11,955 nucleotides of DNA from the NCBI GenBank assembly GCA_031414595.1, contig JANNVX010000113.1, forward strand, positions 1 to 11,955, read 5' to 3'. Position 1 is the first letter of the stretch, and the number at the start of each line of letters is the position of its first letter. Below the pieces are notes generated by a model. It searched no databases, had not been told where the DNA came from, and saw only the letters and a program-made list of their open reading frames with translations. Below are positions 1 through 11,955 of the stretch, piece after piece. The stretch comes from Deinococcales bacterium (lineage in GTDB: Bacteria; Deinococcota; Deinococci; Deinococcales; JAAFIG01). The translations under genes were made by a program, and so were the position numbers.

Positions 1-81
1 GTCACAGGGCGGACACGGGGGTCCGCCCCTACCTGACGTATTTTTATGGATTTTGTAGGGACAGACCCCTGTGTCTGTCCT
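1..81. repeat. 81-bp terminal direct repeat (copy 1) containing an inverted doublet of GTAG-type REP hairpins
   Basis: Identical to 11875-11955. REP-A on - strand (7-32): GTAG-GGGCGGAC-ccccgt-GTCCGCCC. REP-B on + strand (55-80): GTAG-GGACAGAC-ccctgt-GTCTGTCC. The two are separated by a 22-nt AT-rich spacer. Confidence 0.92.
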
Positions 82-140
82 GCTAGGAAACAATGTTTCA
101 TCATTTCCAAATAGGGAAGTTATTTACGGACAAATCCTAA
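1..140. mobile_element. Right part of a putative MITE (REP doublet + right TIR 115-137 + TAA 138-140)
   Basis: The reverse complement of 115-137 (GGATTTGTCCGTAAATAACTTCC) matches 11821-11843 (GGAACTGTCCAAGAATAACTTCC) at 18/23 positions. Both are bounded externally by TAA. Confidence 0.65.
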
Positions 141-231: not shown

Positions 232-271
232 AAAATAAAAAACTCGAGCCTCCTTTTTTGGAGGCTCGAGT
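232..271 (-). terminator. Intrinsic terminator of the lipoprotein gene
   Basis: Perfect 12-bp stem ACTCGAGCCTCC (242-253) / GGAGGCTCGAGT (260-271) with a 6-nt loop, followed on the - strand by a T-rich tract. It lies about 27 bp past the stop at 298. Confidence 0.85.
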
Positions 272-297
272 GAAATCAACAAAACTAAACAGTAGCT

Positions 298-1875
298 TTA
301 GTTACTTTGGAAAGTACGAGCTTCTGATTCACCCTGGATAATTTCAGCATTGCGCGGTGCGCCAAAGATGTCGACTGCACCGCTTGGGTCAAGCAAAGCA
401 TCGGTGGTCGTACCCTTAAAGCCAATCACATTCCAACCAAATGGACTGGCGGCTGGGAATGTGCCAAGACCCAAGTCCGAGGTACTAGGGATGGTGGTGT
501 TATTGGCTGTAGTAAAGATAATAATCTGTTTTGTTCCTGATTGGAAAACGGCGACGTGCATACCTCCTGAAAATGCACCCCAATTAAATCCTTGGGTGGC
601 AAGATTAACACCAGTGGCAACATTATTTGGCGAACCAAGGGCTGGGGCTAAGGGCAGGGTAATGGTGGTGCTGTCATTTGCGCCCACACCAACTCTGGAA
701 GCAATAGATTTACGTCCTGCACTATCGGTTGCCTCTGCTTGTACCATCATGGTTGTGGTCGCAATAATTGGGGTATTCAAGGCTGGGGCAATGCTGGTTA
801 ATCCAGAATCACCAAAGCTGGCATTTTGTGAACCCAGACTCATCACACCACCATCTGTGTAAACCAAGCCTTGGCTCAATTTGGTCAGGTTATAAGTGAC
901 GTTAGGCTTATTGATGGTTGTGGTCATTAGCCCTGAAGTAAGGGTATTGAGATTGATGTCTTGATTACCGGTTGTGCCAGCATCGGCGACTGTAACACTA
1001 GGACGCTCTCCGTGACCAATAAAAATAGGGGTAGTTGCTCCACCGGGTAAACCAGTAGCTGGATTAGTCCTCCATTGCATACCACGCAATGCGCCAGTGG
1101 CTGCATTGCCTGTACAAAACCCAACCGAACGGCTAAACGGATTATTGGCAACACTGCCTTCGGAGAATCCGTTAGCCGCACTAGATGCAAAAGCGACTCT
1201 GGTTCTGCGGTCAGCAGGGGTAGGAAGTGTTAAAACAGTTCCACCAGCATTCAAATTACCAGTGATTGTACCGGACTTGGTTAGCACCACACTGTCAAAG
1301 AAAGAAGGAACACGAACTGTTGTACGGGTCAAGTTCTTATAGACCAAAACAATCGTAGTGCCTCCCGAGGAGAAATTAACCGCCAAGGTATACGGTGTGG
1401 TCAAATTGGTAAAAGCAAATTGTCCGTTAGATCCTGTGGTTGTAGATTGCAAGAGACTGGTTGCGGTTGGTAGGGCAATCACATTGACATTTGGCGCTGG
1501 ATTACCGCAGCTGTCCACAGCCGTTCCGCTCACCCCAATTGTGGCGGGTGGATTGACTGTAATTGCAGCCGTGGCGGTTAATGTTCCAGAAGATGCCGTC
1601 AAAGTGACATTGGTGCTGTTGGCAATGGTGGCTGGCGGGGTGTAACTGACGGTTGTTCCAGTGGTGGCTGATAATGTACCAACACTAGGGTTAATTGCCC
1701 AGTTAATTGTGCCGGTGGCATTGGTCAGCGTCGCAGTAAACGGAACGGCTGCGCCACCAACAACAACCGTACTGGTTGTCGGTGAAACCGAGAGTGTTGC
1801 GGCTGGTGGGGGTGGGCAAGCTGTTAGAACAGCCACCAAGCCTGTTGCCAATAACCCTAAAATCTTACTTTTCAT
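298..1875 (-). CDS. Surface lipoprotein, Thr/Gly/Ala-rich, with an N-terminal Ig-like domain and a carboxypeptidase-regulatory-like beta-sandwich (525 aa)
   Basis: Signal peptide with lipobox LTA-C20 followed by PPPP. Ig-like pattern (LSVSP..V..G..V.FTA......W......GTLS.....YTPP), then 'VSGTAVD..GNP.PNV.V ... TTGSNGQFAFTNL..PYTL'. SD AGGAGG at 1881-1886, 5 nt from the ATG. Downstream terminator present. Domain names come from pattern recognition only. Confidence 0.85.
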   Translation of the reverse strand: MKSKILGLLATGLVAVLTACPPPPAATLSVSPTTSTVVVGGAAVPFTATLTNATGTINWAINPSVGTLSATTGTTVSYTPPATIANSTNVTLTASSGTLTATAAITVNPPATIGVSGTAVDSCGNPAPNVNVIALPTATSLLQSTTTGSNGQFAFTNLTTPYTLAVNFSSGGTTIVLVYKNLTRTTVRVPSFFDSVVLTKSGTITGNLNAGGTVLTLPTPADRRTRVAFASSAANGFSEGSVANNPFSRSVGFCTGNAATGALRGMQWRTNPATGLPGGATTPIFIGHGERPSVTVADAGTTGNQDINLNTLTSGLMTTTINKPNVTYNLTKLSQGLVYTDGGVMSLGSQNASFGDSGLTSIAPALNTPIIATTTMMVQAEATDSAGRKSIASRVGVGANDSTTITLPLAPALGSPNNVATGVNLATQGFNWGAFSGGMHVAVFQSGTKQIIIFTTANNTTIPSTSDLGLGTFPAASPFGWNVIGFKGTTTDALLDPSGAVDIFGAPRNAEIIQGESEARTFQSN

Positions 1876-11817: not shown

Positions 11818-11955
11818 TAAGGAACTGTCCAAGAATAACTTCCTGATTTCAAATAGACCAAAAACAGACAATTGGTCACAGGGCGGACACGGGGGTCCGC
11901 CCCTACCTGACGTATTTTTATGGATTTTGTAGGGACAGACCCCTGTGTCTGTCCT
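11818..11955. mobile_element. Left part of a putative MITE (TAA 11818-11820 + left TIR 11821-11843 + REP doublet)
   Basis: The TIR is the inverted partner (18/23) of 115-137, and the sequence runs into the REP doublet. Confidence 0.65.
11875..11955. repeat. 81-bp terminal direct repeat (copy 2) with REP doublet
   Basis: Identical to 1-81. REP-A at 11881-11906, REP-B at 11929-11954. Confidence 0.92.

Follow-up and report, generated by a model that had tools for sequence, protein, structure and literature searches.

An IS-derived MITE with a swappable GTAG-REP doublet core in a Deinococcales genome

The stretch of DNA analysed here, 11,955 bases long and hereafter called the window, carries at each end part of a 191-bp repeat that is an IS-derived MITE with a swappable REP-doublet core. 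The account that we consider most probable (roughly 0.85) is that of an ISAzo13-derived MITE, mobilised in trans, whose core has been exchanged. Sequence comparisons suggest that the element is mobile, as near-identical copies were found together with three filled-versus-empty sites between species.

Structure of the element and its position at contig ends

The window is the entire contig C113 of its own genome assembly, G000 (120 contigs, 4.49 Mb, 94% complete). Its genes are chromosomal and encode a TctABC transporter, an sCache histidine kinase with a response regulator, an enzyme of the IMPDH/GMP-reductase family and an HNH protein. The hexamer CTCGAG occurs 55 times in the 11,955-base window, compared with about 2.9 occurrences expected for a random hexamer. 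Bases 1-81 are 100% identical to bases 11875-11955, and an earlier sequence-only reading had merged the window ends through this 81-bp terminal overlap into a single unit, in which a TIR at each side, flanked by TAA, encloses two REPs in inverted orientation. All motifs (TAA, TIRs, REP(-), 22-nt spacer, REP(+)) were located where that reading had placed them, and the left and right TIRs match at 18 of 23 positions. The parts of the element in the window are listed below.

11818-11820, no strand: TAA flank of the right-end MITE copy, one of its two 3-bp target repeats; T[A/T]A at 71 of 78 MITE and IS ends in G000
11821-11843, plus strand: left TIR, 23 nt; 20/23 identical to the left TIR of an ISAzo13-family IS; homology between copies starts here
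11844-11879, plus strand: left linker, 36 nt; the first ~9 nt (TGATTTCAA) resemble IS subterminal sequence, the remainder is MITE-specific
11880-11906 (also 6-32), minus strand: REP(-), GTAG and a hairpin with an 8-bp stem in the minus-strand reading; 50 exact copies in G000
11907-11928 (also 33-54), no strand: 22-nt spacer between the head-to-head REPs, with a homologous counterpart in a second MITE family
11929-11955 (also 55-81), plus strand: REP(+), GTAG and a hairpin, at the contig end; 65 exact copies in G000; 27/27 identical to a REP within a RAYT-like ORF (G000:C109)
1-81, plus strand: REP(-), spacer and REP(+) of the second MITE copy, truncated by the contig start; identical to 11875-11955; the missing left half is probably at the end of contig C116 (synteny with G005)
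82-114, plus strand: right linker of the left-end copy, 33 nt, from the sequence and the alignment of copies
115-137, plus strand: right TIR, 23 nt; 23/23 identical to the right TIR of the ISAzo13-family IS; homology between copies stops here
138-140, no strand: TAA flanking the left-end copy, as also seen at the end of C116

The element measures 191 bp from TIR to TIR and contains no ORF of 60 aa or more, and is thus small and non-coding. Both window copies are intergenic, one lying about 160 nt past the 3' end of a gene and the other about 110 nt upstream of an ORF start. REP(-) differs from the reverse complement of REP(+) at five positions, all of them transitions; in the stem, four of these make up two compensatory pairs, and the fifth is a loop position. 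In the minimum-energy fold predicted for the single strand (-43.8 kcal/mol, z = -7.9), the two TIRs are paired, as are REP(-) and REP(+), so that a single long hairpin results; none of 200 shuffled sequences folded as well. A search of the window and of locus L021 against Rfam returned no family at gathering score.

When the merged unit was compared with the assembly by BLAST, 57 matches of at least 130 nt were obtained, 39 of them at 99% identity or more and 11 at full length (e.g., C70:807-1003, 99.5% identical to the merged unit). The 191-bp unit is therefore real, but the two window ends do not represent one physical copy of it. Contig ends are touched by 47 of the 57 long matches, and 44 of these 47 reach 134-147 nt into the repeat. 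The 81-bp overlap is explained by the assembly breaking inside the repeat, since two contig ends that each extend about 140 nt into the same 197-nt repeat will overlap by about 81 nt (138 + 140 - 197 = 81). In the congener G005, the two flanks of the window are found on different contigs, each continuing into other sequence. The G005 sequence upstream of the left flank is homologous to contig C116 of G000, which ends in a TAA followed by the left half of a copy. Taken together, the contig-end matches, the chromosomal genes and the synteny with C116 indicate that the two TAA triplets of the window most likely belong to two different copies. The merged unit joins the halves of two identical copies, and its sequence is also that of natural full copies (e.g., C70:807-1003).

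The exact terminal overlap and the TAA at both flanks would also be expected if the contig were a small circular replicon with a single element copy at its junction. Against this stand the many other long matches that end at contig ends in the same way, the chromosomal gene content, the separate and continuing flanks in G005 and the match of the left-flank neighbour in G005 to C116. The circular junction was rejected, as the two contig ends were not found to lie in one copy, and we regard it as extremely improbable. Of the 240 contig ends of the assembly, 69 are due to this element and its parent IS, and end overlaps of this kind should not be taken as circularity.

Target sites and the parent insertion sequence

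About 35 copies of the element are present in the assembly. When 14 copies were aligned together with 40 nt of sequence on each side, similarity started at GGAAC and stopped at AAATCC, which are the tips of the TIRs. The triplet T[A/T]A flanks 31 of 35 left ends and 18 of 21 right ends of the MITE, and all left (10/10) and right (12/12) ends of the IS described below. Read inward, a C precedes the triplet at 54 of the 78 ends, giving a preferred target of C-TWA-G. The sequence-only reading had named three findings that would speak against it: REPs elsewhere never flanked by these TIRs, homology not ending at the element boundaries, and TIRs unique to this locus. Each was looked for and the opposite was seen, with REPs flanked by the TIRs, homology ending at GGA/TCC and TIRs present at many loci.

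Empty sites in relatives, proposed by the same reading as a check, were found in three cases. The filled site in G000:C33 (TTA[...]TTG) corresponds to an empty target C-TTG-G in G005:C574, where the flanks are contiguous. The filled sites in G001:C313 and G001:C585 show exact duplications of TAA/TAA and TTA/TTA in comparison with empty sites in G000:C18 and G000:C34, respectively. These three comparisons between congeners set the length of the duplication at 3 bp. A 2-bp TA duplication of the IS630 type with variable end bases was also considered and rejected, as the copy in C70 and the three empty sites fit 3 bp. No empty sites were obtained for the two copies in the window, where similarity to G005 in the intergenic flanks is lost 17-47 nt beyond the element, or for the copies in C70, C11, C31:52228 and C37:49073, for which the flanks in relatives are on different contigs or rearranged.

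Identical triplets on both sides were observed in only three of seven internal copies. Discordant pairs were TTA/TTG (C33:43647-43839), TAA/TTA (C11:139-333) and TTA/TAA (C31:27145-27339). For two discordant or rearranged copies, recombination between copies is likely, because their flanks are not contiguous in relatives. The empty site for C33 is contiguous in G005, so flank shuffling does not explain its TTA/TTG pair; one idea is that a donor-flank overhang may have been carried along with the element.

An IS with the same TIRs and a coding interior was recognised at contig ends of G000, as 12 right ends (identical) and 10 left ends (identical or one base off). These ends encode the first 21 and the last 32-34 codons of a transposase. 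Nine of the 12 right ends encode the last 33 residues at 100% identity; in the remaining three, identity is 97-100% over 32-34 residues. A full copy of about 1.3 kb is present in contig C678 of the same-genus genome G001, with ORFs at 295-558 and 627-1511. The larger ORF matched PF07592 (3.2e-97) and NF033519 (358 bits, cut-off 200), with a weak secondary match to IS630. Membership of PF07592/NF033519 in the G001 copy and the 3-bp duplication place the MITE as an ISAzo13 derivative. In G001:C678 (L011), an A7 run (530-545) separates the two ORFs of the transposase, and the -1 frame is open across it; the interruption could be a programmed frameshift or a mutation. The ISAzo13 transposase gene is absent from the G000 assembly, where a PF07592 search gave no matches and tblastn found the terminal codons only. 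An older MITE subfamily (C28, C48, C119) agrees exactly with the left end of the IS over 35-36 nt.

The element is accordingly classed as a MITE on its size of less than 300 bp, its lack of coding capacity, the TIRs at the limits of homology, the duplication verified at empty sites and an autonomous partner with the same TIRs. The alignment and the empty sites bear out the earlier description: the element is non-autonomous, is bounded by TIRs, is accompanied by a 3-bp duplication of TWA and encloses a GTAG-REP doublet. Mobilisation in trans, which that description had implied, is supported by the IS ends in G000 and the full IS in G001, and the DDE transposase with these TIRs that it had proposed to look for exists in G001:C678.

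These comparisons show that the whole unit, from TIR to TIR, is what moves, and that it inserts at T[A/T]A, preferably C-TWA-G, with duplication of 3 bp. The IS that shares the TIRs of the MITE, and of which at least 10 copies are present in G000, probably supplies the DDE transposase that mobilises the MITE in trans. The central part of the MITE, the head-to-head GTAG-REP pair, has been exchanged between unrelated MITE shells at least once, with insertion through an HUH enzyme, gene conversion or template switching as candidate routes. This core is probably dispensable for DDE transposition, and probably the Deinococcales version of the central palindrome of ISAzo13-type MITEs in other phyla.

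The REP core and explanations for its spread

The two halves of the core carry a 5' GTAG tag followed by an imperfect palindrome, which falls in the 20-40-nt range of REPs and is present in many copies, and they form an inverted doublet within one hairpin, as is typical of REPs. Stem variants (GGGCGGAC/GTCCGCCC, GGGCGAAC/GTTCGCCC and GGACAGAC/GTCTGTCC) differ from each other by compensatory changes. A census of the assembly with a tolerant pattern gave 174 REP matches. Of these, 118 lie beside ISAzo13-type TIRs, 27 beside a different TIR and 24 beside neither; five were flagged for both and by eye belong to the second kind of TIR. Thus, 145-150 of the 174 REPs sit inside MITE shells and only 24 outside any.

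The different TIR defines a second MITE family, with TIRs TAGAGCCTCCGAAAGG, 22 left ends and duplications of 9 bp in five of seven aligned copies (examples in G000 are C74:3119-3300, C8:2631-2800 and C15:54930-55110). It accounts for 27-32 of the 56 REPs outside ISAzo13-type shells. The reading of such "REP-only" doublets as free REPINs was largely rejected, as most of them are cores of this second family. At positions 238-272 of the window, directly downstream of an ORF of 525 aa (298-1875, minus strand), there is a terminator-like hairpin, CTCGAGCCTCC-TTTTTT-GGAGGCTCGAG, whose arms resemble the TIR tips of the second family (GAGCCTCC).

The core of the window element is 84.8-88.5% identical to three cores of the second family, with identical REP(+), and only 54.8-67.1% identical to four cores of sister ISAzo13-type subfamilies in G000. 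The relationships of cores and shells thus disagree, which indicates that the doublet has moved between shells at least once. Sharing of the core with an unrelated MITE shell favours the movement of REP doublets between MITEs.

Two further kinds of repeat structure were seen in the assembly. An ISAzo13-type variant of 111 bp holds a single REP (C36:3202-3312, the same as C62:31-141). A nested hairpin element of about 40 nt, with the core GACCAT...GCACCT..CGGGCATGGTC, gave 45 pattern matches; it is mostly found inside REP stems or loops and in some cases inside ISAzo13-type TIRs, which adds a third layer of nesting (C31:12018, C49:25494 and C41:77360(-), as well as L034 in G006 and L016 in G014).

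A RAYT flanked by these REPs, as suggested by the sequence-only reading, was sought at nine loci around Y1-transposase matches in seven of the eight genomes of the genus; at none of them were these REPs found beside the gene. The single Pfam Y1 match in G000 (C98) is in a type I restriction-modification locus, and the 3.2 kb searched there held no REPs of the window family. A RAYT-like ORF of 201 aa is encoded in G000:C109 (L095:1474-2079(-)), for which the best NCBIfam match was REP_Tyr_transpos at 33.7 bits, below the cut-off of 80. This ORF holds a doublet of the window REP family in frame, between the HUH strand and the tyrosine helix. Its REP(+) is identical to that of the window in 27/27 positions, and its GTAGs point outward, compared with inward in the MITEs. 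The RAYT-like ORF in G007:C411 has the same arrangement. In the paralogues G000:C98 (L020:1417-2121(-), 62.9 bits and below the same cut-off of 80), G006:C18, G006:C2 and G004:C152, other REP-like doublets occupy the same place. The RAYT-like ORFs with an in-frame GTAG-REP doublet are 201-253 aa long (L095, L020, L099, L102, L091, L092). The doublet within the ORF is a physical association and not the arrangement that defines a REPtron. A bona fide REPtron was identified in G001:C417 (L087), where a RAYT gene (389-805(-), 152 bits on NF047646) is flanked by the inverted REPs GTAGGGTGGGCTT[C/T]GCCCAC at 262-284(+) and ~869-891(-), a family unlike that of the window.

Other explanations for the shell and for its core were weighed against an ISAzo13-derived MITE with an exchanged core. 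A 3-bp TWA duplication is also a trait of IS1031-like and PIF/Harbinger elements, and the sequence-only reading had assigned the shell to one of these types. The confirmed duplication agrees with such an origin, yet the sole element found with these TIRs encodes an ISAzo13-family transposase, and neither Pfam nor NCBIfam gave an IS5-family match for it. Duplications of 3 bp are moreover stated for ISAzo13 as well, as for the eukaryotic Zator, in the accessible text of PMC10045372 and PMC5718144. The assignment to IS5 (IS1031-like) or PIF/Harbinger was hence abandoned, and there is hardly any chance that it is correct. The strong fold and the intergenic position of both window copies would fit a host-serving, REP/BIME-like regulatory repeat, such as a terminator or mRNA stabiliser, with incidental TIR-like ends. 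However, these ends coincide with the TIRs of the IS, transposition is evident from the target duplications and the empty sites, and Rfam gave no match, so that this explanation is very unlikely; a secondary effect on the host may still exist.

The spread of the core itself may involve more than hitch-hiking in a DDE-mobilised shell. A REPIN moved as a single strand by a RAYT-like HUH transposase may have landed in the apical loop of the MITE and may still hop between shells. The composite would then serve both chemistries as a substrate, in keeping with the landing site that the sequence-only reading had considered. Such dual mobility would account for a core that resembles its counterpart in an unrelated shell (85-88%) more than those in sister shells (55-67%), and it is in line with the in-frame doublets of the ORFs in C109 and G007:C411, the single-REP variant of 111 bp and the presence in the genus of a classical REPtron with another type of REP. 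Hairpins also serve as insertion targets in G000, where many of the ~40-nt elements lie in REP stems or loops. The absence of these REPs beside the gene at all nine Y1 loci points the other way, as do the small number of REPs outside MITE shells and the opposite orientation of the GTAGs in the MITEs and in the ORF. Furthermore, clean presence/absence of a bare doublet was not found, the only candidate (G001:C272 versus G000:C58) being a replaced intergenic stretch, and gene conversion or template switching explains the discordance of cores and shells equally well. We therefore consider dual mobility possible but doubtful. As a speculative and rather improbable extension, ISAzo13-type shells across phyla may carry, or be landing pads for, the palindromic repeats of each lineage. 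In the present lineage, RAYT-like HUH enzymes with the same in-frame doublet would have put the GTAG-REP doublet into the single-stranded tip of the folded MITE. REPs would then ride on DDE transposition with the two chemistries coupled, and the uncorrelated TWA triplets would be 5' donor-flank overhangs carried along, as in piggyBac.

Related systems and distribution

In its TIRs, 3-bp duplication and small, non-coding, multi-copy nature, the element resembles IS-derived MITEs and the ISAzo13-family IS, the prokaryotic counterpart of the eukaryotic Zator. It differs from MITEs that are derived from an IS by loss of the transposase in that its centre is a GTAG-REP doublet and not a remnant of the IS interior. 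With REPINs and RAYT-mobilised doublets, as they are presented in the accessible text of PMC3116915, PMC2817692 and PMC3733652, it has in common the GTAG tag, the short GC-rich imperfect palindrome and an inverted REP pair that forms one long hairpin with compensatory stem changes. Unlike in REPINs, the doublet is bounded here by DDE-type TIRs and a target duplication, appears to move with them, and was found without a flanked RAYT. Like the present element, the Correia/NEMIS, Nezha and Chunjie MITEs (Delihas 2011, PMC3184786) are 100-250 bp long, have TIRs and direct target repeats, fold into stable hairpins and lie between genes, with empty sites in relatives; in the accessible part of that source no REP doublet is described for them, and a label of Chunjie as MITE/REP-like has no support there. 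In Pseudomonas, composite REPs near tyrosine-transposase genes likewise join REPs to unrelated stem-loops, in larger repeated inverted structures of hundreds of copies (Di Nocera et al. 2013, PMC3733652). Going by the accessible text of the same paper, those composites border Y1-transposase genes and lack both DDE-type TIRs and target duplications, whereas the outer shell of the present element is that of a DDE IS. In the accessible parts of the open-access literature on ISAzo13, on REPINs, RAYTs and MITEs, and on Deinococcus repeats, neither a REP doublet inside a DDE-type MITE nor ISAzo13 MITEs were described.

The full hybrid was found in G000 and G001, with up to 99% identity, and as one old copy in G006. 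The core alone gave matches in six of the seven other genomes of the genus, and the same design with other REP stems was observed in G003, G007 and G006, as well as in G014, which belongs to another genus. By reading of the sequences, the 19 TIR pairs in G000 comprise 12 with the window REP family and seven with other GTAGGGG hairpins. An ISAzo13-type shell that lacks a GTAG hairpin was accordingly seen in none of these 19 pairs, nor elsewhere in the Deinococcales.

A scan of species-representative genomes with the right-TIR pattern returned at least 89 stretches, 80 of which were examined. Among these 80 listed matches, 11 were from Deinococcales MAGs and 69 from other phyla. Nine of the 11 listed Deinococcales loci had GTAG hairpins, and the other two hold less than 75 nt of interior. 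Of the 69 listed loci outside the Deinococcales, 37 had a partner TIR and form MITEs of 90-232 bp, mostly 134-179 bp; a GTAG hairpin was present in none of these 37 listed pairs. The non-Deinococcales copies that were inspected had other long palindromes in the centre.

To our knowledge, the way in which REPs multiply is still argued, and RAYTs are the only engine that has been proposed. Here, most copies of one REP family reside inside MITEs that are probably moved by DDE transposases, which offers a specific example of the possible spread of REPs by hitch-hiking. Two shells that differ in their TIRs and in duplication length share this doublet. A MITE family can now be assigned to the little-studied ISAzo13 group, whose TIRs are also present on high-copy MITEs in Planctomycetota and Endozoicomonas.

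High-copy MITEs, mostly of 134-179 bp, that are delimited by the same 23-nt TIR pattern but have GC-rich palindromic cores particular to each lineage are present in Planctomycetota/Pirellulaceae, Endozoicomonas, Salinisphaera and other groups (L104, L107, L110, L112, L115, L125, L163, L173 and other loci). With such MITEs as queries, 62 matches were obtained in an Endozoicomonas genome and 82 in a Pirellulaceae MAG; in these numbers both strands of the palindromic queries are counted.
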